A DNA stretch of 64,000 nt. Source: Pseudonocardiaceae bacterium. Its GTDB lineage: Bacteria > Actinomycetota > Actinomycetes > Mycobacteriales > Pseudonocardiaceae. Positions 644-64,000 of this stretch are shown piece by piece (within the stretch, counting starts at the first letter, position 1; the number at the start of each line of letters is the position of its first letter). The notes under the pieces are model-generated. The model searched no databases. It saw nothing but the letters and a program-made list of their open reading frames with translations, and was not told the DNA's origin. Position numbers and translations under genes: made by a program. The stretch is taken from NCBI GenBank assembly GCA_039924425.1, contig JBDTAX010000045.1:5064-69063 (forward strand), read 5' to 3'.

Positions 644-678
644 AAGTGAGGCGAGCTCATCAGGGGGAGGCAAGCACG

Positions 679-2592
679 GTGAGCGTTGCGGCCCAGACGG
701 ATCCGTCCTGTTCTCTACGGCCCGCTTGGGCCGTGCGCCAAGCGCGAGCGGCGGCGCTGGGCAAGCTGTGGATCGCGCTGTCGCGGGAGCGGATCGAGGG
801 TCTCGTCCCGAGCGCCAGCGCCGGCCGCGCGCTGCTCCTGCTCTCCGACGGCAGCCGGCTGTCCGCCCCACCCGCGATCGCTGACGCCTTCGCCGAGCAC
901 CCGGCTGGCCTGACCGTCGCCCTGTATCCAACCACCCCGCATCCGGCGCCGCCGCAGCTGATCGACCACCCGGTCGCGCTGCTCAGCGCGGTCCTGGCGG
1001 CCCGGCCCCACGGTGGCGACACTGGCGACACCGACCGGTGGTGCCAACTGTCCGCCGAGCTCGATGACAGCGTCGCCAACCACGCGCTGGCGCTCGTCGG
1101 CGAGTCCCGGCGGCGGGAACGACTGGGTGCTGACTATGCCCCCAGGGACAACTCGCTGCGCTGGGCGGCGCGCCGCGCCGCCGCCGACCCAGGTTTCAGC
1201 CCACTCGCCCTGTTCGAACAGGCCGTCGTCGATGGGCATCCGCTGCACCCGTGCGCGCGGGTGCGCGGCGGGATGACCGTGGCGGAGCTGTTCGCCTACG
1301 CGCCGGAGTTAGCCGACGAGGTCGACGTCCGGATCGTCGCCATCGCCAGGTCGTCCTTCACCCAGGCAGCGTTCGCGCAGGTGTCATCCAAACGGCGCGG
1401 GATGACCGAGCTGCTGCGCCGCTGGCACCCGGCGGTCGCGCGGGCCGCCGACGCGCACCTGCGCGGCCTTCGGCGGGATCCGGCCGACTACGAGTTGCTA
1501 CCGGTCCACCCGTGGCAGCTAAGCCGCACGGTGCTCGACCACACGGTGCTCGACCGCTATGGCGACGCGCTCGCCGAAGGGCGCGTCATCGTCATTACCC
1601 GAGCGGGCATCCGCGCTCGGCCGCTGCTGTCGCTGCGCACCCTCGCCCCCGCGACGAACCGGCGGGCAGCTCACCTCAAGACCGCGGTCGACATCCGGCT
1701 GACCACCGCGATCCGCGTCGTGTCGCCCGCAACCGCGCACAACGGCCCGGTGGTGTCCGCGCTGCTGACCGAGATCGGCCGGCGCGAGCACGGCTTCGGC
1801 GGGCGGTTCGTCAGTCTCGCCGAGTTGGCCAGCGGGAGCTACCGGCCAGCGCCGGGTGAACCCCTCGACGGCGCGGCCAGTCTCGCCGCGATCGCCCGGG
1901 AGTCCCCGGAGCGGCACGTCGGCGACGGCGAGCTCGCGCTTCCGGTCGCCGCGCTGGCCGCCCGCTCGCCGCGCTGCGGCCGGCCGATGTTTGGCGAAGT
2001 GCTCGATGAACTGGCGTCGGCGCACCAACGCGCACGCTCCGACACCGCCGAGCGCTTCCTCGCCAGTTACTGCGACTGCGCGCTGCCCGCACTGTTCACC
2101 TTGTTGTCCCGCTGGGGGGTCGCGCTGGAGCCACACGGGCAGAACGCGGTCGTGGTGCTGCGGGACGGCCTGCCGGTACGGCTGCTCTACCGCGACTTCG
2201 GCGGCATCCGGGTCAGCGCGGCGCGCCTGGCGCGCGGCGGCCTGCGCCCACCGGCCCTGCTCGGCGCACTGGCGACCGAGGACGAAGACCAGCTCCGGGC
2301 CGCCTTGTTCTTCCCCTTGGTCGTCACCAACCTCAGCCAGGTCGTCGCCGCGCTCGCCAGGGTGAGCCAGACCGATGGCGAACGCTTGTGGCGGCTGGTT
2401 GCCCGGTGCTGCCGATCGGCCTACGCGACGCTCACCGCGGACCCCGCCATCGCACGGCAAGCCGGCCGAGACGAGGCCGCCCTGTTCGGCCCCACCCTCC
2501 CCGCCAAGTCCATGTTGCGGGTTCAGATGGCCGCCGACCCGCATGTCCCCCAGTGGGTGGCGGTACCCAATCCGCTGGTGGCAGCCGAATGA
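679..2592 (+). CDS. IucA/IucC-family NIS siderophore synthetase (1 of 2)
   Basis: ORF 646..2592. Likely start is GTG 679, 9 nt after GGGGGAGG (663-670). Family hallmarks are DGHPLHPCARVRGGM and LEPHGQNAVVVLRDGLPVRLLYRDFGGIRV. The stop overlaps the next start (ATGA at 2589-2592). Confidence 0.9.
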   Translation: MSVAAQTDPSCSLRPAWAVRQARAAALGKLWIALSRERIEGLVPSASAGRALLLLSDGSRLSAPPAIADAFAEHPAGLTVALYPTTPHPAPPQLIDHPVALLSAVLAARPHGGDTGDTDRWCQLSAELDDSVANHALALVGESRRRERLGADYAPRDNSLRWAARRAAADPGFSPLALFEQAVVDGHPLHPCARVRGGMTVAELFAYAPELADEVDVRIVAIARSSFTQAAFAQVSSKRRGMTELLRRWHPAVARAADAHLRGLRRDPADYELLPVHPWQLSRTVLDHTVLDRYGDALAEGRVIVITRAGIRARPLLSLRTLAPATNRRAAHLKTAVDIRLTTAIRVVSPATAHNGPVVSALLTEIGRREHGFGGRFVSLAELASGSYRPAPGEPLDGAASLAAIARESPERHVGDGELALPVAALAARSPRCGRPMFGEVLDELASAHQRARSDTAERFLASYCDCALPALFTLLSRWGVALEPHGQNAVVVLRDGLPVRLLYRDFGGIRVSAARLARGGLRPPALLGALATEDEDQLRAALFFPLVVTNLSQVVAALARVSQTDGERLWRLVARCCRSAYATLTADPAIARQAGRDEAALFGPTLPAKSMLRVQMAADPHVPQWVAVPNPLVAAE

Positions 2593-4607
2593 GCAGCTAC
2601 GGCATCATCCCAGAACATCCGCAACTCCACACGATCGAGGAGCTGCGGATGTATGAGACGCTGGCGGCGACCGCGCCGCGGTACGCCAGCGCGTTCCTCA
2701 AGCACCTGCCCAGGGCGCGGAGCGTGGTTTTGCGCCGGCTGCTCGCGGCCCTGTGGCGAGAGGACGTTGGCGGGATCCGGACAGCCAGCCGCCGTCTCGA
2801 CGCCCACCCGGGCCACCGCGCGGACTTGCTGGCGCTGGCGTCACTGCTGGGCGGTGTTCAGGCCGGTGGCTGGCACGCCCACGAGCTGGACGCCGCGACG
2901 GTGCTGGCTTTCCCGATCCGCGCCGAACACGCCTTCGACAACATCACGCTGGGCCACCCGGTGCTGTGCCTGCGGGACGGCGAGACGACCGTGATCGCCG
3001 CACCGCACGATCTCGTCGAGCTGCTGGCCGGCCGCGCTCCCGCCCCGGTTTGGTGGTCGTTCGCCACCGAGCTCGTGGACGCCGTGACCAACCTCGCCCT
3101 GGCCTACGCCCGAGCCGAGGAGCAGCGGCTGGCCCTACTCCGGCGCGACGCGCCGGACACGGCGGGTCGCGCGCGGATGCTCGGCGAGCGGGAGACGCCC
3201 GGAGAGGTGCTGGTGTTCTTCGAGCGACTCAACACCGAGGGGCACAACCTGCACCCGTGCGGGCGCGGCCGGTTGGGGATGTCACCAGCCGCCGTGCTGC
3301 GCCACGACCTGGAGTCCGACACGCCCACCGATTTGATCATGGTGGGCGTCCGCCGTGAGCGCGTCGAGTCCACACCCGATGCGCGCGGCCGCGACATCGG
3401 GCAGCTGCTGTGCGCCGAGTACCCGAGACTCGCCACCGCCATCGGTGCACAGCTCGACCCCACCGGTTATGTGTTCCTGCCCGTGCACGCCTGGCAGCTC
3501 GAGCAGGTCGTCGTCCCGCTGTTCGCCGAGGAGATCGCGGTGGGCACGGTGGTTCCCGTGCCCACCGCCCGGCTGGCTGGGGTGCCGACGTCCAGCCTGC
3601 GGACGTTGCTCACCGAGCGCTCCCCCGCGGGCCGGCGCCTGCTCGTCAAGACCGCGCTCGACACGCTGATCGGCTCGACCCAGCGGTCCATCTCCGCGCA
3701 CACGACGAACAACGGCCCGGTGTACAGCCGGCTGCTCCAGCGGGCCATTGCCCGTGAGCCGGTGCTGGCCGAGCGGATCGTCCTGCTCGAGGAGCTCACT
3801 GGGGCCAGTTACCTGCCGCCGGCCCACGCTCCGGATCCCGACGGCCGCTCCCGCGCGCTATCCGCGCTCGTCCGCCGCGACATCAGCGACTACCTGCACC
3901 CCGACGAGCTGCCGGTGCCCGGCTGCGCGCTGCCCGCCCGCGCGCCGCTGACGGAGTCCAGCGTTCTAGTCGAGCTCGTCACCCGCTACGGCACGACACG
4001 CGGCGAGCCAGACCTGGGCACGGCCGGGCTGGGCTTCGCGCAGGAGTACGCCGCGCTGCTGCTGCCGGTGAGCGTGATTCTGATGACCAAATACGGCATC
4101 GCGCTGGAGGCCCACCTGCAGAACTGCATCGTCACCTTCGTCGACGCCGTGCCCACCCGGTTGGTGTTGCGGGACTGGGGCGGGATGCGAATCTACCCGC
4201 CGCGGCTGCGCCGGCAGGGGCTGCCCTTCACCCCCCGGCCGGGAGCGGTCACGGTGACCGACGACGTGCACGTGATGCGGGCCAAGATGCTGTACACCGT
4301 GCTGTCGAACCACCTCGGGGAGATCGTGGCCCACCTGGTCGCGCGGTGCGGCGTCGACCCGCACGCGGCGTGGCGGCGCGTGCGGGCGATCCTGGAGGAG
4401 CTCCTCACCGGCTTGGACGCCGATCCGGCGCTGCGCGAGGACGTCGCCGCTGATCGCGCCGCGCTGTTCGCGCCGACGGTGCCCGTCAAGGCGTTCGCCC
4501 GAATGCGGCTGGATCCAGCCGGCGGCGACCAGTACGCGCAGGTGCGCAACCCGCTGCACGAGCACGCGTGGGCACCATGTCTTGCGCTGAGCACGCGGCG
4601 GCGTTGA
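2589..4607 (+). CDS. IucA/IucC-family NIS siderophore synthetase (2 of 2)
   Basis: In-frame ATG at 2589 within ORF 2388..4607, translationally coupled to the upstream gene. Motifs are NTEGHNLHPCGRGRLGM and LEAHLQNCIVTFVDAVPTRLVLRDWGGMRI. The upstream 67 codons are Arg/Pro-rich shadow sequence overlapping the previous gene. Confidence 0.9.
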   Translation: MSSYGIIPEHPQLHTIEELRMYETLAATAPRYASAFLKHLPRARSVVLRRLLAALWREDVGGIRTASRRLDAHPGHRADLLALASLLGGVQAGGWHAHELDAATVLAFPIRAEHAFDNITLGHPVLCLRDGETTVIAAPHDLVELLAGRAPAPVWWSFATELVDAVTNLALAYARAEEQRLALLRRDAPDTAGRARMLGERETPGEVLVFFERLNTEGHNLHPCGRGRLGMSPAAVLRHDLESDTPTDLIMVGVRRERVESTPDARGRDIGQLLCAEYPRLATAIGAQLDPTGYVFLPVHAWQLEQVVVPLFAEEIAVGTVVPVPTARLAGVPTSSLRTLLTERSPAGRRLLVKTALDTLIGSTQRSISAHTTNNGPVYSRLLQRAIAREPVLAERIVLLEELTGASYLPPAHAPDPDGRSRALSALVRRDISDYLHPDELPVPGCALPARAPLTESSVLVELVTRYGTTRGEPDLGTAGLGFAQEYAALLLPVSVILMTKYGIALEAHLQNCIVTFVDAVPTRLVLRDWGGMRIYPPRLRRQGLPFTPRPGAVTVTDDVHVMRAKMLYTVLSNHLGEIVAHLVARCGVDPHAAWRRVRAILEELLTGLDADPALREDVAADRAALFAPTVPVKAFARMRLDPAGGDQYAQVRNPLHEHAWAPCLALSTRRR

Positions 4608-5974
4608 CCGCCCAAGCTTTGCGACCGCGAGGGCCCGCCTGGGACCGGGTGCGCGAGGTGCTGCGCGGGCAGGCAGCCGGCGAGCAGCCGGTGTGCGCGT
4701 ACGTCTACGACCTCGATGCGCTCCTCGAGCGGGCCGAGGCGGTCCGCGTAGCGCTGCCGGGGCGGTGCGAGCTGTACTACGCGGTCAAGGCCAACAGTCA
4801 TCCCGCGGTGCTGAGCACGCTGGCGAAGCACGTCACGGGGTTCGAGGTGGCCTCGCTGGGCGAGATCGACAAGGCGCTCGCCGCGGGCGCGTCGCGGCTG
4901 GCGTTCAGCGGCCCGGCCAAGACCGACGCGGAGATCGCCGGCGCGCTGCGGGCCGGCCTGGGCCTGCTCAACGTGGAGAGCCTGCACGAGCTGCGCCGGG
5001 TGGGACTGATCGGGGCGCGGCTGGGTGTCCAGGTGCCGGTTGCGCTGCGAGTGAACCGGCGCTCCAGCGGCCTGGCGGGCGAGCTGCGGCGGATGGCCGG
5101 AACCGCCACCCAGTTCGGGATCGACGAGACCCTGCTAACGCAGGCGGTGGAGCTGGCCCGCTCACTGGCGGCAGCGGTGCGGCTGCGCGGTTTTCACCTG
5201 CACGCGGCCTCGAACAACCTCGACGCGGCCGCGCACGCCCGCTTCGTGGCCGACAGCGTGGCATGGTGCGTCCAGCAGGCGGCCCGACACCACATCGACC
5301 TGGACGTCATCGACGTCGGCGGCGGCATCGGCGTGCCCTACACCGGTGGTGCGGGCTTCGACCTGCCCCGCTTCGCCGCCGGGCTCAGCGCCGTGATGGA
5401 CCAGCTACCTCCCGGCGTGCGGTTGATCTTCGAGCTGGGTCGGTTCCTGGTGGCCGAGGCTGGTTGGTACGCCGCCGAGGTGCTCGACCTCAAGTACACC
5501 CACGGCCGTCATTTCGCGGTGCTGCGCGGCGGGACCCACCACTTCCGGCTGCCGGCCGCCTGGGGATACAGTCACCCGTTCGCGGTGCTACCGATCGAGA
5601 CGTGGCGCTACCCGTTCGTCCGGCCGGAGATACGCGCGGTGTGTGTCGACGTCGCCGGTGAGCTGTGCACCCCCCGGGACGTGCTCGCCCGGGGAGTCTG
5701 GGTCGAGCGGCTGCGCGTCGGTGACATTGTGGTGTTCCCGCTGGCTGGGGCATACGGCTGGGAGATCTCCCACCACGACTTCCTCAGCCATCCCCACCCC
5801 ACCCAACTCGTCCTGGCGCCGGCGTTACGAGCGCCCCACGCTCGCCCCGAAGTCAAAAACGATCCTGAAACGACCCGTGGGACGGGAGTGACTGCTGAGC
5901 TTTCTGGGAGCCTTGCACTACGGGAGCAGCGATCACCCCACGCTACCCGCCGACTTTCTCTAAAGAGTGAATAG
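4568..5974 (+). CDS. PLP-dependent fold-type III decarboxylase (Orn/DAP/Arg decarboxylase family; SbnH/PvsE-like by context)
   Basis: YAVKANSHPAV contains the PLP-binding Lys motif. HLHAASN, IDVGGGIGVPY, AGELCTPRDVL and AGAYGWE are also present. An alternative start ATG lies at 4577. The last ~50 codons look non-conserved, and the stop (TAG 5972-5974) lies inside the first tandem-repeat unit. Confidence 0.85.
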   Translation: MGTMSCAEHAAALTAQALRPRGPAWDRVREVLRGQAAGEQPVCAYVYDLDALLERAEAVRVALPGRCELYYAVKANSHPAVLSTLAKHVTGFEVASLGEIDKALAAGASRLAFSGPAKTDAEIAGALRAGLGLLNVESLHELRRVGLIGARLGVQVPVALRVNRRSSGLAGELRRMAGTATQFGIDETLLTQAVELARSLAAAVRLRGFHLHAASNNLDAAAHARFVADSVAWCVQQAARHHIDLDVIDVGGGIGVPYTGGAGFDLPRFAAGLSAVMDQLPPGVRLIFELGRFLVAEAGWYAAEVLDLKYTHGRHFAVLRGGTHHFRLPAAWGYSHPFAVLPIETWRYPFVRPEIRAVCVDVAGELCTPRDVLARGVWVERLRVGDIVVFPLAGAYGWEISHHDFLSHPHPTQLVLAPALRAPHARPEVKNDPETTRGTGVTAELSGSLALREQRSPHATRRLSLKSE

Positions 5975-6177
5975 TCAACATTGTTGGAGACGCTGGCCAA
6001 TGGTCCGAAATTTCGTTCAACCTGTTCACTCTCTGAATACAAATGATCGCCCCATGTCATCGGCCAACTTGCTCTAACGAGTGAATAGTCAACATTGTTG
6101 GAGATACGGGGCAATGGTCCGATATTCGGTTTGATCGGTTCACTCTCCGAGCACGAATAGTCGCCACGTGTTACCTG
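5957..6177. repeat. Two tandem imperfect direct repeats of about 115 bp, each with an internal 8-bp inverted repeat
   Basis: Unit 1 runs from about 5957 to 6071 and unit 2 from about 6072 to 6177. The shared core is GAGTGAATAGTCAACATTGTTGGAGA...GGCCAATGGTCCGA.ATTTCG.TT.A.C.GTTCACTCTC. AGAGTGAA and TTCACTCT arms lie about 60 nt apart in each unit. The tract is visibly lower in G+C than its flanks. Confidence 0.85.
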
Positions 6178-6208
6178 TTGATCCGCTTGAATAATTTTAG
6201 ATAAAACC

Positions 6209-6237
6209 TTGACGACAAGGGTGGCCGAGCGGATAGT
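6209..6237 (+). promoter_or_regulatory. Candidate housekeeping-sigma promoter for the peptide/S74 gene
   Basis: TTGACG (6209-6214), a 17-nt spacer, then GATAGT (6232-6237). It lies about 70 nt upstream of ATG 6309. This is pattern matching only. Confidence 0.35.
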
Positions 6238-6308
6238 TACTGGAACCAGTTGGGTGTACCGCAAGAGACCAACTGCTCCCATCAGGTTGACGAAAGGACT
6301 GATTCAAC

Positions 6309-6784
6309 ATGTTTAGCTTCGCTAGTCTTTTTTCTGCCATCACAGGTCTCCTCGGCGGGACGAGTGGCCTCACCAGTCTCGCCAGTACCGGGCTGAGTCT
6401 TGCCACCAGCGCGTTGAGCACTGCCACCGCCGCGTTGGGTTTGGGCACCAGTGCTCTTAGCGACCGCCGGCTCAAGTCCGATATTGTGGCGGTGGGTTGG
6501 AGTCGATGAACGACACCGGACCGGTCAACGGTTGCGAAGTTCTTGCCAAGCTCGATGCGTTGCCAGTGGCGACGTGGCGTTACCGGTGGGAGGCCACCGG
6601 TGTGCGCCATCTGGGCCCGATGGCCCAGGACTGGCATGCCGCATTCGGTTTAGGAAAGGGCGATACCACCATCCCGATGGTGGATTCCCACGGTGTGCTG
6701 GTGGTTGCGATACAGGCTCTACACCGTCAGCTGATCGAGCTGCGCGCCGAGGTTGACCAGATACATCAGCAGTTGGCTGACTGA
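6309..6784 (+). pseudogene. Uncharged Gly/Ser/Thr/Leu-rich N-terminal peptide joined to a peptidase-S74 intramolecular-chaperone autoprocessing domain; frame interrupted near 6490-6510
   Basis: ORF 6309..6509 encodes 50 uncharged residues followed by S-D-R-R-L-K-S-D-I, the S74 Ser/Lys dyad motif with 5-residue spacing. It stops after 66 aa. ORF 6497..6784, in a different frame, encodes the rest of an S74-like domain (LAKLDALPVATWRYRW, HLGPMAQDW, VLVVAIQALHRQLIELRAEV). Together they look like one gene split by a 1-nt frame change. Confidence 0.65.
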
Positions 6785-6805
6785 CTTCTCAGCTCGCCAC
6801 TGACC

Positions 6806-6846
6806 GCTCGGTTCGCCCGGCACGTTGCTCGCCGGGCGAACCGAGC
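6806..6846 (+). terminator. Hairpin between the S74 gene and the permease gene
   Basis: Perfect 16-bp arms GCTCGGTTCGCCCGGC (6806-6821) and GCCGGGCGAACCGAGC (6831-6846) with a 9-nt loop. There is no U-tract. Confidence 0.45.
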
Positions 6847-6952
6847 GCGCCCGCATACGGCACACGGCAGCGATCAAAGAATTGTGATGGCATTGCGATG
6901 ACAATGAGAAAATTCACTGGACACCTGCGCGGAATTGAGAACGGGTCGGCAC

Positions 6953-8194
6953 ATGAAATTACGAGAGGCGGTGCTCATCGCGCTACGCGCGGTGCGCGCC
7001 CACCGGCTGCGCTCCGCGCTGACCATGCTCGGCCTCATCATCGGAATCTCGGCGGTGATCCTGCTGGTCGCCATCGGCGACGGGGTGCAGAAATCGGTCG
7101 ATGCGCGCATTGAGCCACTGGCCGATCTGATCACTATCGTGGCCACGACCGGGGACCTCCCCGGCGGCCCCGCCCCGAAAAATCTGACCGATGCCGATGT
7201 CGAGGCATTGCGAAAAGCACCGGACGTCGTCGCCGTCACCCCGGTGGTTACCGGCCCATCCCTGATTGGAACCGATGCCGCCCAGTCGACCCTCCCCTCA
7301 CGGGTAACCGTGGTCGGCTCCACTGACCACTGGTTCGAAGTGGCTGACCGGGATATTCAGACTGGATCCTTCTTTGACCAGGCCCAGGTTCGCTCCGCCG
7401 CGAGAGTGGTGGTGCTGGGGCCCACCGCGGTGACCAACCTGTTCGGCGGCGACTCCACTACCGCCCTGGGCAGCACCGTCCGGATCAACCGCCAGACCTT
7501 CACCGTCATCGGGGTGATGCAGACCGTCGGCCTGCCAGGCGACAACATCGTGGTCATGCCGCTGAGCACCGCACGCAGCTATGTCTTCGGTCACGGCGAC
7601 ATCGTCAACGAGGTCACTGCGCAAGCAACTCGCTCGGCCGCTGTGCCCGCCGCCGAAGAACAGGTCACCAACATCCTCGACAACCGACACCGCATCAGAA
7701 ACCCAGCATCCCGAGATTTCGAAGTCCAGACCCTGACAACCGCCATCTCCAGGTTCAACCAGATCCTGCAGATCCTCACCTTGTTCACCGCCGCTGTCGC
7801 CACGGTCTCCCTGGTCGTCGGCTCGATCGGCGTCCTGAACATCATGCTGGTCTCAGTCACCGAACGAACCCGAGAGATCGGGATCCGCAAAGCGATCGGC
7901 GCCACCAAGCGCGCCATCCTCGAACAGTTCCTCATCGAATCCATCGTCCTGGCCAGCCTCGGCGGGCTCATCGGCATTGGCGTCGGAATCGGACTGTCCC
8001 TGCTCAGCGGCGTCATCGCGGCCGCCTTCGCGAGCCACCTCGGCCCCGTCCTCGCCGGGTTCACCCCCGTCGTGAGCGTCCTGCCCGTGGTGGTGTCCTT
8101 CACGATCAGCCTCGCGATCGGGCTCATCGCCGGCGGCTACCCGGCTTATCGCGCCGCCCGGTTGCGCCCGGTGGAAGCCCTCAGATACGAGTAA
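6953..8194 (+). CDS. MacB/FtsX-type ABC transporter permease (no adjacent ATPase gene)
   Basis: In-frame ATG at 6953 (MKLREAVLIALRAV). N-terminal TM (LRSALTMLGLIIGISAVILLVAIG), a ~250-aa extracytoplasmic domain, and a C-terminal FtsX region (GVLNIMLVSVTERTREIGIRKAIGA plus 3 TM segments). The downstream neighbour is convergent rarA. Confidence 0.9.
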   Translation: MKLREAVLIALRAVRAHRLRSALTMLGLIIGISAVILLVAIGDGVQKSVDARIEPLADLITIVATTGDLPGGPAPKNLTDADVEALRKAPDVVAVTPVVTGPSLIGTDAAQSTLPSRVTVVGSTDHWFEVADRDIQTGSFFDQAQVRSAARVVVLGPTAVTNLFGGDSTTALGSTVRINRQTFTVIGVMQTVGLPGDNIVVMPLSTARSYVFGHGDIVNEVTAQATRSAAVPAAEEQVTNILDNRHRIRNPASRDFEVQTLTTAISRFNQILQILTLFTAAVATVSLVVGSIGVLNIMLVSVTERTREIGIRKAIGATKRAILEQFLIESIVLASLGGLIGIGVGIGLSLLSGVIAAAFASHLGPVLAGFTPVVSVLPVVVSFTISLAIGLIAGGYPAYRAARLRPVEALRYE

Positions 8195-62316: not shown

Positions 62317-62500
62317 ATCTCCCGCGCGTAACGGAACATTGACGCCCGCTTGACGCGGTCCCAGCGCCACGGAAAAAACTGTTTCGCTCTTCGATCACGC
62401 TGCCGATTTACTTGCGCTCAGTTTTTATTCCACCACGTCGCGCTCTTTTCTCACCGCTGGCTTCCTCCCGTTTACGGAGAGTCAATTCTTGAACCCGTTG

Positions 62501-62529
62501 TTGACAACAGCTTCGGCGTGCGCTTAACT
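62501..62529 (+). promoter_or_regulatory. Near-consensus promoter candidate for the small peptide gene
   Basis: TTGACA (62501-62506), a 17-nt spacer, then TTAACT (62524-62529), in an AT-richer intergenic tract. It implies a leader of about 240 nt. Confidence 0.45.
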
Positions 62530-62776: not shown

Positions 62777-62896
62777 ATGGGACTCGCGGGAATCTTTACT
62801 GGCATCAGTACTGTTGTGGGTGGCGTCACCGGTATTCTGGGCGGCGCGGTCAGCTTGGTGAATGGGCTTCTGGGTGCCGTTCTGGGCGCCCTGTAG
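62777..62896 (+). CDS. 39-aa completely uncharged Gly-rich hydrophobic peptide
   Basis: ATG 62777 lies 5 nt after AAGGAG. Product is MGLAGIFTGISTVVGGVTGILGGAVSLVNGLLGAVLGAL. Composition and the VTGILGG/ITGLLGG segment resemble the N-terminus of the 6309 gene. A terminator-like hairpin and a paralogous permease follow. Confidence 0.55.
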   Translation: MGLAGIFTGISTVVGGVTGILGGAVSLVNGLLGAVLGAL

Positions 62897-62924
62897 TCGC
62901 AGCCTTGAGGTGATGTGACGCGAT

Positions 62925-62988
62925 GGCCCCCTCCTGCGACGGAGATGTCCCCGAAACATTTCTCGCAGTAGGAGGGGCCGTTGTTTTC
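62925..62988 (+). terminator. Intrinsic-terminator-like hairpin between the peptide gene and the permease gene
   Basis: Long imperfect stem: GGCCCCCTCCTGCGA (62925-62939) pairs with TCGCAGTAGGAGGGGCC (62963-62979), with inner GAGATGT/ACATTTC pairing. The U-rich GTTGTTTTCC follows. Confidence 0.55.
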
Positions 62989-63038: not shown

Positions 63039-64000
63039 ATGAGTTTGCGGGAAGCGTTTCTCATCGCGCTGCGCGGGGTGCGTGCGCACCGGCTGCGCTC
63101 CGCGCTGACCATGCTCGGCCTCATCATCGGAATCTCTGCGGTGATCTTCCTGGTCGCCATCGGCGACGGGGTGCAGAAATCGATCGACGCGCGCATCGAA
63201 CCGCTGGCCAATCTGATCACCGTCGTGGCCTCGACCGGGGACCTCCCCGGCGGCCCGGCCCCGAAAAACCTGATCGATGCCGACGTCTCGGCATTGCAGA
63301 AGGCACCCGACGTCATGGCCGTCACCCCGGTAGTCGCCGGCGCGTCATTGATCAAGGCTGACGTCGCCCAGTCCATCGCCGCGTCCCGGACGACCGTCGT
63401 CGGCTCCACCGAAGACTGGTTCGATGTGAACAACCGCGACATCGCGGCCGGGTCGTTCTTTGACTCCGACCAGGTCAGCTCCGCCGCCAGAGTCGTCGTG
63501 CTGGGGCCCACCCCGGTGGCCAACCTGTTTGGTGGCAACACCGCCGCCGCCATGGGCAGCACTGTCCAGATCAACCGGCAGAACTTCACAGTCGTCGGGG
63601 TGATGCAGTCTGTTGGCATGCCGGGTGACGACATGGTGGTCATGCCGCTGAAAACCGCACGCAACTATGTCTTCGGTCTCGGCGACGTTGTCAACGAGGC
63701 CACAGTGCAAGCCGCCTCGGTGGCCGCCGTACCGGCGGCGACAAACGAGGTGACCAACATTCTGGACACCCGGCACAACATCAGCACTCCCGCAGCCCGG
63801 GATTTCCAGGTCCAGTCTCTGACTTCCAAGATCACTCAGTTCAACCAGATTCTTCGTATTCTTACCTTGTTCACCGCCGCTGTCGCCGCGATCTCCTTGA
63901 TGGTCGGTGCGGTTGGCGTCTTGAACATCATGCTGGTCTCAGTGACGGAGCGAACCCGGGAAATCGGCATCCGCAAAGCGATCGGGGCCACCAGCCGCGC
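63039..64000 (+). CDS. MacB/FtsX-type ABC transporter permease, paralog of 6953..8194 (3' end beyond window)
   Basis: My translation from ATG 63039 is MSLREAFLIALRGVRAHRLRSALTMLGLIIGISAVIFLVAIGDGVQKS...GVLNIMLVSVTERTREIGIRKAIGATSR. It is colinear with the first permease, roughly 70% amino-acid identity by eye. There is no stop before the window end, so it is absent from the ORF track. Confidence 0.9.
   Translation, partial: MSLREAFLIALRGVRAHRLRSALTMLGLIIGISAVIFLVAIGDGVQKSIDARIEPLANLITVVASTGDLPGGPAPKNLIDADVSALQKAPDVMAVTPVVAGASLIKADVAQSIAASRTTVVGSTEDWFDVNNRDIAAGSFFDSDQVSSAARVVVLGPTPVANLFGGNTAAAMGSTVQINRQNFTVVGVMQSVGMPGDDMVVMPLKTARNYVFGLGDVVNEATVQAASVAAVPAATNEVTNILDTRHNISTPAARDFQVQSLTSKITQFNQILRILTLFTAAVAAISLMVGAVGVLNIMLVSVTERTREIGIRKAIGATSR

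Follow-up and report, generated by a model that had tools for sequence, protein, structure and literature searches.

We describe here a pair of overlapping open reading frames, ORF1 and ORF2, in a 64,000-nucleotide stretch of contig JBDTAX010000045.1 from a Pseudonocardiaceae bacterium. The whole stretch is referred to as the window and its coordinates are used throughout; L and P numbers label the related loci and proteins with which it was compared. ORF1 encodes a short peptide that ends in the Ser/Lys strand of a peptidase S74 domain (S74/ICA domain), and ORF2 encodes the body of such a domain. The best explanation of our observations is that positions 6209-6847 constitute a self-contained two-gene cassette in which the S74/ICA domain is split at the gene boundary. 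The core of the cassette and the gene that follows it are laid out as follows:

6309-6509, plus strand: ORF1, 66 aa, stop codon TGA at 6507-6509
6309-6458, plus strand: ORF1 cargo, 50 uncharged residues rich in Gly, Ser, Thr, Ala and Leu, helical by prediction; putative released peptide
6459-6509, plus strand: ORF1 tail SDRRLKSDIVAVGWSR followed by TGA; N-terminal 'cable' strand of the S74/ICA domain, with Ser51 and Lys56
6506-6784, plus strand: ORF2, 92 aa, S74/ICA body without the Ser/Lys strand; -1 frame relative to ORF1
6805-6847, plus strand: perfect hairpin with a 17-bp stem after ORF2, -39.3 kcal/mol, z=-4.9, no U-tract; terminator or attenuator
6953-8194, plus strand: MacB-type permease, 413 aa, MacB_PCD and FtsX domains; own conserved 5' region at ~6885-6952

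The locus was singled out by a sequence-only reading, and our residue check confirms its observation that ORF1 begins with 50 residues lacking any Asp, Glu, Lys, Arg or His and continues as S51-D-R-R-L-K56. The calculated average mass of the unmodified cargo is 4667.3 Da, that of the tail 1845.1 Da and that of the whole ORF1 product 6494.3 Da. The open reading frame listing places ORF2 at 6497-6784; its likely start is the ATG at 6506, which overlaps the ORF1 TGA as ATGA. The Shine-Dalgarno sequence of ORF2, GGAG, sits within the W-S-R codons of ORF1 (TGGAGTCGA).

The split coincides with a conserved gene boundary

A scan with an ORF2 profile, taking one genome per species, confirmed at least 575 relatives. 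The best 80 of these are all from Actinomycetota, with hosts in the Pseudonocardiaceae, Nocardia, Streptomyces, Kitasatospora, Embleya, Microtetraspora, Nonomuraea, Catenulispora, Nocardiopsis and others. A tail-bearing ORF lies right before ORF2 in 80 of 82 matches, as it does in L072 when the pattern is relaxed, and what remains has too little upstream sequence. Our whole locus survey covered about 100 loci, and essentially all of the ~90 with enough upstream sequence have a tailed ORF1 directly before a coupled ORF2. The tail has a fixed length of 16 residues and the consensus S-D-R-x-[LIV]-K-x-D-[VI]-x-x-V-x-W-x-R-stop. Its conservation among the 50 unique tails found at ~90 loci (counts out of 50) is strong at most positions:

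Positions 1-3: Ser 46, Asp 44, Arg 41
Positions 5, 6 and 8: Leu/Ile/Val 47, Lys 46, Asp 40
Positions 9, 11 and 12: Val/Ile 46, Pro/Ala 43, Val 47
Positions 14-16: Trp (which sets the register), Ser/Asp/Glu 46, Arg followed by the stop 46

In an alignment of 76 unique junctions, ORF2 starts either at -1 relative to the ORF1 stop (an RTGA overlap) or at +5 (2 nt past the stop), with GGAG inside the W-S-R codons 8-13 nt before the start. The ORF1 stop codon is TGA in 55 loci, TAG in 18 and TAA in 3. No slippery heptamer (X XXY YYZ) is conserved before the ORF1 stop among these 76 junctions, and in L057 the two ORFs share one frame with a TAG between them. Two loci exemplify the arrangement of an upstream ORF1 and an overlapping ORF2:

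L001: MAITSFLTGLLNSVGGLGGVTSFVTGVFGSLGLL-SDRRLKSDIVVVSWSQ
L003: MGLFASIGSLVSGAVGFAGGLVSGVFSSLGSFL-SNRRLKSDIVAVDWSR

Judged from these sequences, the ORF1/ORF2 arrangement is translational coupling of two polypeptides rather than the product of sequencing error, gene decay or programmed frameshifting. The sequence-only reading had treated the change of frame as one to be corrected before analysis; the recurrence of the same boundary at about 90 loci, here with its ATGA overlap, argues that nothing needs correcting.

Both genes are under purifying selection. The dN/dS (ratio of nonsynonymous to synonymous substitution rates) of ORF2 is 0.14-0.16, and that of ORF1 in comparison with L166 is 0.29 overall, 0.32 for the cargo and 0.09 for the tail, for which the range is 0.09-0.14. 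Against the closest relative, L004, the cargo (6309-6458 in the window, 1761-1910 in L004) differs by nine nonsynonymous changes and one synonymous change, all of which leave it uncharged; in the same comparison ORF2 and the flanking decarboxylase gene have dS of ~0.17-0.19 and dN/dS of 0.16-0.30. This excess of nonsynonymous changes may reflect diversifying selection on the peptide, and since the counts are small we take it only as a hint.

A degenerate second cassette was seen at L003 (6489-6700, minus strand), convergent to the first. Its degenerate ORF, MGGFLPDFFGLLSELVRGLLNDPRLKHDIVAGYRRNWSR, has Asn in place of Ser and overlaps the start of a truncated ORF2, MESVTSHIRVGG...

ORF2 encodes an S74 body that lacks its catalytic strand

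ORF2 alone matches Pfam PF13884 (Peptidase_S74, 'chaperone of endosialidase') with an E-value of 1.8e-6 and 28.6 bits (cut-off 22), over profile positions 11-53. Joining the ORF1 tail to ORF2 raises the score to 36.8 bits over positions 1-53 of 58, the tail adding positions 1-10 and 8 bits. This bears out the suggestion that the remainder of an S74-like domain lies in the frame adjacent to the ORF1 motif. S51 and K56 have the five-residue spacing of the S74 dyad and stand at the N-terminal edge of the domain, and their counterparts are S911/K916 in endoNF and S587/K592 in MyRF (PMC8326128). The term 'intramolecular', which supposes one contiguous C-terminal segment, does not apply to a domain that spans two ORFs. 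Of the earlier idea of a peptide joined to an S74 domain, what stands is that the peptide carries the 16-residue N-terminal strand; the body is a separate, coupled protein.

We obtained an alignment-based AF2 model of an artificial ORF1-ORF2 fusion as a monomer, in which the confidence score (pLDDT) exceeds 90 over residues 70-158, the ORF2 part, including a long C-terminal helix at 124-157. A single-sequence AF2 model (pLDDT 48.6) was discarded in favor of this one. In a Foldseek search the best match to the model was the MyRF ICA domain 7DC3 (probability 1.00, E=5e-3), followed by 3GW6 and 3GUD, so that model and fold search together predict the beta 'donut' and C-terminal helix of the ICA fold. 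A phmmer search of the fused sequence against PDB sequences gave zero matches, the ICA structures being reached by the fold search alone. PHROG matches are to the C-terminal ends of tail-fibre and virion proteins. Among the 109 ORF2 homologs, the closest (74-94% identical) are small proteins from Pseudonocardiaceae metagenome-assembled genomes and soil metagenomes, all of which begin past the point at which the Ser/Lys motif would sit. RefSeq labels the pair 'hypothetical protein' and 'tail fiber domain-containing protein'.

Alignment to single-chain relatives, which have SDRxxK in the same protein, puts the split exactly at the border of the 'cable' and helix alpha-1, with '...K-x-D-F-x-A-V' on one side and 'D-P-x-E-V-L-A-K-V', the sequence of this helix, on the other. 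The window has an 11-residue insertion at the split (GWSR/MNDTGPV), and elsewhere the distance from the ORF1 stop to the conserved body is 33 to 122 codons. In the MyRF ICA domain the cleavage-site 'cable' of one subunit threads the beta 'donut' of its neighbor (PMC8326128); S587 and K592 are both essential, and it is the C-terminal coiled coil that brings about the trimer, which cleavage requires (PMC8326128; PMC3742443). Because this strand already works between subunits in an intact ICA domain, its supply by a separate chain would be structurally natural and an arrangement in trans is plausible.

Some relatives have other arrangements. The unsplit protein P0158 retains an insert characteristic of the split forms ('...PVRWS + linker + GF..L') and looks, from its sequence, like an intermediate between unsplit and split. 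P0112, P0116, P0133 and P0145 (1701-4928 aa) contain two to three internal copies of the same S74-body subfamily, which is unusual for a domain described as C-terminal. Across loci, the ORF2 N-termini are Arg-rich, non-hydrophobic and variable in length (MTSHIRGRRARRD..., MRIFRRRSRAADRG...), with no signal peptide.

ORF1 cargos and peptide-biosynthesis contexts

In the hydrophobic cargo class to which the window belongs, Gly and bulky residues each recur every 3.4-3.6 residues. This pattern describes a putative helix that is small-faced on one side and bulky on the other, a shape with which helices could pack tightly against each other. A triple-beta-helix, proposed from an 8-residue Gly spacing in L003, was dropped in favor of the helix because of this class-wide periodicity. 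Comparison of the cargo peptides and of a second window peptide (pep2, below) with Pfam and NCBIfam bacteriocin and small-peptide families gave only noise (e.g. SseD, E=1.5), with none at E<=1. A homology search with ORF1 returned just two near-identical peptides, such small ORFs being seldom called. ORF1 and pep2 are the only ORFs in the window that combine at least 24 uncharged N-terminal residues, a Gly-rich composition and a Shine-Dalgarno sequence.

The part of ORF1 that precedes the tail varies among the sister loci:

Leaderless, uncharged, Gly-rich 25-50-mers: the window, L001, L003, L008-L010, L097/L168, L166
Acidic, with the head LDxRVHDHREELxxLMADxGRCDDISSG and 12-20 variable residues: L012, L018, L173-L175
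Lasso-leader peptide: L170
Proteins with a hydrophobic N-terminus or signal peptide: Nocardia, Microtetraspora, Streptomyces

All five loci with acidic cargo (L012, L018, L173, L174 and L175) share an operon of the order radical SAM, ORF1, ORF2, MFS_3 exporter (L012 4621-7559; L018 190-2742), with S74-tailed precursors of 64-71 aa. The radical SAM/SPASM protein belongs by NCBIfam NF041718 (491.7 bits, equivalog cut-off 425) to the AmcB family of maturases, which form cyclophanes in peptides, and the end of its gene overlaps the start of ORF1 in L012. From its gene content, the operon looks like an uncharacterised pathway for a peptide made on the ribosome and modified after translation (RiPP) with an S74-tailed precursor. 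The curated model means that this radical SAM family had already been noticed, and its curators may know its partners. At L170 (JGI Ga0376645_0000896, 4765-5306), ORF1 scores above the cut-off for NF033521, 'lasso RiPP family leader', and consists of a lasso leader and a 14-residue core followed by the S74 tail and a coupled S74 body. The cassette lies 1.4 kb from lasso genes for an Asn-synthase (cyclase), PqqD and a transglutaminase-core protein (protease), which have their own second precursor at 3199-3357 on the minus strand. These RiPP contexts argue that the part before the Ser is the product and the S74 tail a removable follower. The flanks of the window cassette contain no peptide-modifying maturase, and RiPP enzymes are found in the sister loci alone.

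In other bacteria, three short S74 proteins made as one chain (P0174, P0237 and P0254) have a lasso-like YxxPxLxxxGxxxxxT head that runs straight into SDRxLK.

Association with permeases and other exporters

The gene following the cassette encodes a protein with MacB_PCD (PF12704, E=5e-44) and FtsX (PF02687, E=3e-19) domains, whose best NCBIfam match is the permease half of NF007826 (MacB) at E=1e-61, below the equivalog cut-off. The order noted earlier, a hairpin (6805-6847) and then a MacB/FtsX permease (6953-8194) lacking its ATPase, is upheld by our scans: a tblastn search of the window with the cognate-type ATPase of L089 found nothing better than E=0.25. PADLOC returned only generic LolE-like transmembrane matches.

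Permease orthologs (78-81% identity) follow the cassette in L003/L006/L171, in L097/L168 and in L166. The flanks of L003 and L168 are unrelated genes, and in none of these three lineages do the flanks match the decarboxylase or RarA of the window. Since the pairing recurs in four lineages, including the window, with different flanks, cassette and permease travel together. At L008 the cassette is followed by a resistance-nodulation-division (RND) transporter and the AmcB-type cassettes by MFS_3. The presence of three unrelated exporter families (MacB-type, MFS_3 and RND) behind Pseudonocardiaceae-type cassettes argues for a product that is exported or expelled. Permease relatives at 59-64% identity have an ordinary ABC ATPase gene immediately upstream. 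The proposed adjacency of peptide and permease is therefore found in four lineages of closest relatives and does not extend to L001, L009 or most permease relatives. The S74 body and the permease are candidates for the dedicated protease and exporter of a biosynthetic cluster, with putative activity and linkage in these roles.

A second peptide and permease near the end of the window

The layout of promoter, peptide gene(s), hairpin and permease repeats at 62.5-64 kb:

62476-62504, plus strand: GGAGAGTCAA...GTTGTTGA motif upstream of this second module, related to a motif within each of the 114-nt repeats described below
62777-62896, plus strand: pep2, MGLAGIFTGISTVVGGVTGILGGAVSLVNGLLGAVLGAL, 39 aa, uncharged, Gly-rich; strong Shine-Dalgarno AAGGAG, no S74 tail
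62920-62984, plus strand: long hairpin with a U-rich tail, GUUGUUUUCC, terminator-like; -40 kcal/mol, z=-5.3
63039-64000, plus strand: second MacB-type permease, a paralog of the first, running past the window end

The second permease is 76.6% identical to the first over 320 aa. Gly occupies positions 2, 9, 16, 23, 30 and 37 of pep2, and in six of seven comparisons pep2 resembles the ORF1 cargo peptides beyond composition (z=3.3-5.1). Searched as a 61-aa ORF, it has zero homologs among 5.8 billion proteins. L092 has the same sucB-to-permease synteny as this module, and pep2 is absent from it. Thus the paralogous module that the sequence-only reading placed here is real as regards peptide, hairpin and permease, and pep2 has neither the S74 tail, nor homologs, nor a counterpart in L092; homology searches with the two peptides found relatives of ORF1 alone. 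The S74 tail would be dispensable for some peptides of the class, because pep2 would work without one.

Control elements and flanking genes

Several further elements lie upstream of ORF1:

5931-6158, plus strand: a 114-nt repeat in two tandem copies, 5' of the cassette promoter, 79% identity by repeat search; possibly a regulator-binding array
6209-6237, plus strand: sigma-70-type promoter-like site, TTGACG-17-GATAGT
6238-6308, plus strand: conserved 5' leader with a small hairpin (6248-6253/6269-6274) and the Shine-Dalgarno sequence GAAAGGA (6292-6298)

The promoter-like site at 6209, suspected from the first, was recovered by a consensus scan, and TTGACR-N17-TAGTWW occurs at the same distance from ORF1 in L001, L003, L004, L008, L010, L097 and L166. 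In ten aligned leaders the hairpin has a 6-bp stem with one position as U-G, U-A or C-G, and the Shine-Dalgarno block is nearly invariant; as only this one stem position varies, covariation lends the hairpin weak support. A hairpin equivalent to that at 6805-6847 is found 3' of ORF2 in L001, L003 and L166.

An nhmmer search with a two-copy profile located two to three copies of the 114-nt repeat at the same upstream position in L004/L005 and L001, while L097 has part of a copy; three similar 114-nt copies were seen by eye in L166, which was outside that search. The repeats have the conserved core GATATTCGGTTCGAYCnGTTCACTCTCYGAG and are not an Rfam family. A structured-RNA reading was dropped, and no such RNA is claimed, because neither L166 nor L001 has retained the inverted GAGTGAA/TTCACTC arms. 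Only three sites in the 64 kb match GTCAA-N(1-14)-TTGTTGR (5974, 6088 and 62481), all upstream of the two modules, and the motif occurs twice upstream of the syntenic L092 permease (L092 1480-1569). This distribution hints that the motif may be a shared operator, and that both modules may be under shared regulation.

The cassette is flanked by two IucA/IucC genes and genes for a pyridoxal phosphate (PLP)-dependent decarboxylase, RarA and a GDSL lipase, in agreement with the earlier remark that no phage genes are nearby. Directly upstream, 646-5974 holds a siderophore-type set independent of non-ribosomal peptide synthetases (two IucA/IucC + FhuF-like synthetases and the PLP-dependent decarboxylase). 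As listed, the decarboxylase ORF overlaps the first 114-nt repeat, and the gene may in truth end before that. Rfam at gathering thresholds and a tRNA scan found nothing in the window.

Comparison with known systems

The cassette shares with phage S74 proteins (the endoNF CIMCD, 3GW6, and phi29 gp12, 3GUD) the Pfam family, the Ser-x4-Lys dyad at the start of the domain, and a body with an 'hLGpmAQD' core and long C-terminal helix; these proteins are among its closest structural matches. By analogy with them, the expected chemistry would be a cut immediately N-terminal to the Ser after trimer assembly. The phage domain is part of one polypeptide and attached to a large triple-beta-helix fibre, whereas in the window the dyad strand and the body are on two polypeptides, the cargo is from a class of uncharged 25-50-residue predicted helices (RiPP-like in sister loci), and the surroundings are not those of a phage. 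Like MyRF, the window protein lacks the extended 'tentacle' loop of endoNF.

The window domain is likewise compact in the manner of the ICA domain of MYRF/MrfA (7DC3), eukaryotic membrane-bound transcription factors, in which cleavage does not depend on the upstream stalk. In MYRF, which is a single chain, the ICA domain frees a DNA-binding trimer from a membrane anchor C-terminal to the domain. In the cassette any membrane segment would instead be N-terminal, and the body is a separate soluble protein.

With RiPP and bacteriocin clusters (lasso, radical-SAM cyclophane/triceptide-type) the cassette has in common a small precursor, a removable segment, a candidate proteolytic function and an adjacent exporter. 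It differs in that the removable part is a C-terminal follower that would itself be the catalytic strand of the protease, and in that the protease would be an S74 body and not a C39, S8, S9 or M16 enzyme; the window cassette also has no modifying enzyme, leader or charged cargo residue. A hairpin between the structural gene and the transport genes is a feature of lantibiotic operons such as nisA.

The permease has the four transmembrane helices and large extracytoplasmic MacB_PCD domain of MacAB, YknXYZ, LolCDE and DevCA, and differs from such exporters in having neither an ATPase nor a membrane-fusion protein adjacent or elsewhere in the 64 kb. Members of the MacB-type family take up their substrates, peptides and lipid-anchored molecules, at the outer face of the membrane. 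Split inteins offer an analogy only: they too divide an autocatalytic fold over two genes whose products reassemble non-covalently to act, but their fold and chemistry are unrelated, and the cassette has no ligation.

Proposed mechanism and alternative explanations

We propose that the ORF1 'cable' and the ORF2 'cutter' together form a split S74 domain that releases a hydrophobic peptide of ~4.67 kDa, which the permease exports or protects against, and assign this a probability of roughly 60%. ORF1 would be a precursor with a 50-residue helical cargo, bearing a Gly/small face, and a 16-residue C-terminal tail containing Ser51 and Lys56. ORF2, made by translational coupling through the ATGA overlap and the Shine-Dalgarno sequence in the W-S-R codons, would supply the 'donut' and the coiled-coil helix. 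The C-terminal helix would trimerise ORF2, and ORF1 tails would then thread into the trimer as the 'cable' does between neighbors in a normal ICA trimer. Cleavage between Leu50 and Ser51 by the Ser/Lys dyad would free the 50-residue peptide (4667 Da), which may by then have been assembled into a bundle of three helices. The peptide would act in or beyond the membrane, and the permease, together with an ATPase encoded elsewhere, would export it or protect the producer. The original suggestion of a small released hydrophobic peptide within a production, export or immunity module thus gains from the RiPP-type sister operons and downstream exporters; ORF2 and the permease are not a simple operon, because a strong hairpin and a separately conserved 5' region intervene between them.

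A number of observations weigh against this proposal. The tail of L173 has Glu where the catalytic Lys is expected, and pep2 has neither an S74 tail nor a partner ORF2. The ORF1 tail is poorly placed by AF2 (pLDDT <50 at residues 55-65, in a monomer of an artificial fusion). ORF2 lacks a signal peptide also in cassettes such as those of Streptomyces and Nocardia, whose ORF1 has the look of a secreted protein, and the cassettes of Streptomyces, Nocardia and Microtetraspora have no consistent neighbors. An ORF scan for Walker-A and LSGGQ motifs found no ABC ATPase in the 64 kb. The hydrophobic-type cassettes L001 and L009 are without a nearby exporter, most permease relatives are without a peptide gene, and the hairpin between ORF2 and the permease is strong and the 5' block beyond it separately conserved.

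Three alternatives concern the origin and expression of the gene pair. Two halves of one Pfam domain in adjacent frames are what a sequencing or assembly frameshift, or the decay of a single-chain S74 gene, would leave, and small single-chain relatives do exist. Such an explanation is effectively refuted by about 90 independent loci, spread over many genera and assemblies, that share this boundary together with its start codon and Shine-Dalgarno sequence and end ORF1 with TGA, TAG or TAA, by a dN/dS of 0.1-0.3 for both ORFs, and by the conservation of promoter, leader and terminator. The same holds for a functionless remnant of a prophage tail-fibre gene, which the prevalence of S74 domains in phage tail spikes and the RefSeq name of the ORF2 homologs might suggest: the flanks lack phage genes, the nearest phage homologs, encoded by phages of proteobacteria, reach no more than 36-40% identity, and the cassette has phylum-wide conservation, purifying selection and its own promoter and terminator. 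Programmed -1 frameshifting or stop-codon readthrough would produce a fused, cis-acting S74 protein. ORF2 is in the -1 frame in nearly all loci, its frame is open for at least 40 nt upstream of the ORF1 stop in many of them, and P0158 is a natural in-frame fusion with the '...PVRWS + linker' insert. However, a 4-nt overlap in itself yields the -1 relation, starts at -1 or +5 are preceded by GGAG at 8-13 nt with no conserved slippery heptamer, and the stop-to-body distance ranges between 33 and 122 codons. The ORF2 frame of L057 and L060 opens only past the ORF1 stop, and the single frame of L057 is interrupted by TAG. Recoding of this kind is very improbable.

The remaining alternatives accept the split and differ on its purpose. 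ORF1 might not be cleaved, serving as a single-pass anchor that docks an ORF2 trimer at the membrane in a structural or signalling role, or cleavage might free ORF2 in a MYRF-like switch. A transmembrane-like helix with a basic tail fits the positive-inside rule, ORF2 has no signal peptide, and MYRF does use ICA cleavage as a membrane-release switch (PMC3742443). This is difficult to reconcile with the near-invariance of the tail Ser, Lys and intervening Asp-Arg, with an ORF2 that has no effector domain for release to activate, and with sister-locus cargos that are soluble and RiPP-like (lasso leader, radical-SAM operon) and not anchors, and we consider it improbable. Alternatively, the permeases may be unrelated to an autonomous cassette whose peptide stays in the producer membrane, as a regulator or type I toxin-like element, and is sequestered or processed by ORF2. 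This deserves more weight, given the hairpin before the permease and the permease's separately conserved 5' region, the many cassettes without a permease and permeases without a cassette, the sucB-permease synteny that L092 keeps without pep2, and the lack of an ATPase in the window. It is nonetheless unlikely in our view, as the cassette and a permease ortholog occur together in four lineages with unrelated flanks, other cassette subtypes precede other exporter families, and a second peptide of the same class precedes the paralogous permease in the window.

Implications

To our knowledge, every S74/ICA domain described so far is a folding sensor that acts in cis and turns over once, either in a phage fibre or in the eukaryotic transcription factor MYRF. 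We found no description in the literature of split S74 domains, nor of S74 in peptide natural-product (RiPP, lasso, AmcB) loci. If the split S74 proposal is correct, the Ser/Lys strand can be delivered in trans, and a function would be found for hundreds of 'tail fiber domain-containing proteins' in actinobacteria, as well as for the unannotated partners encoded upstream of them. More tentatively, and in our view less likely than not, the pair may serve Actinomycetota generally as a device for maturing ribosomal peptides, one that has so far gone unrecognised, in which a follower carrying its own Ser/Lys is cut off by a free trimeric body, perhaps trimerising the cargo. The cargos would then include membrane-active helices, radical-SAM peptides, lasso peptides and secreted proteins, and the window product would represent a new class of uncharged trimeric membrane peptide (bacteriocin-, surfactant- or pore-like) handled by an ATPase-less MacB-type permease.

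The split S74 proposal would also bring the logic of a follower peptide and its protease into RiPP and bacteriocin biosynthesis, for which ...SDRxLKxD[IV]xxVxWxR-stop provides a genome-mining pattern, and would offer biotechnology a 16-residue self-cleaving tag with a 92-residue partner. For the organism itself, it would imply a 4.7 kDa peptide that is abundant and unusually hydrophobic, and a related one of 3.5 kDa, with candidate roles in antagonism, as an envelope or aerial-growth surfactant, or as a membrane pore.

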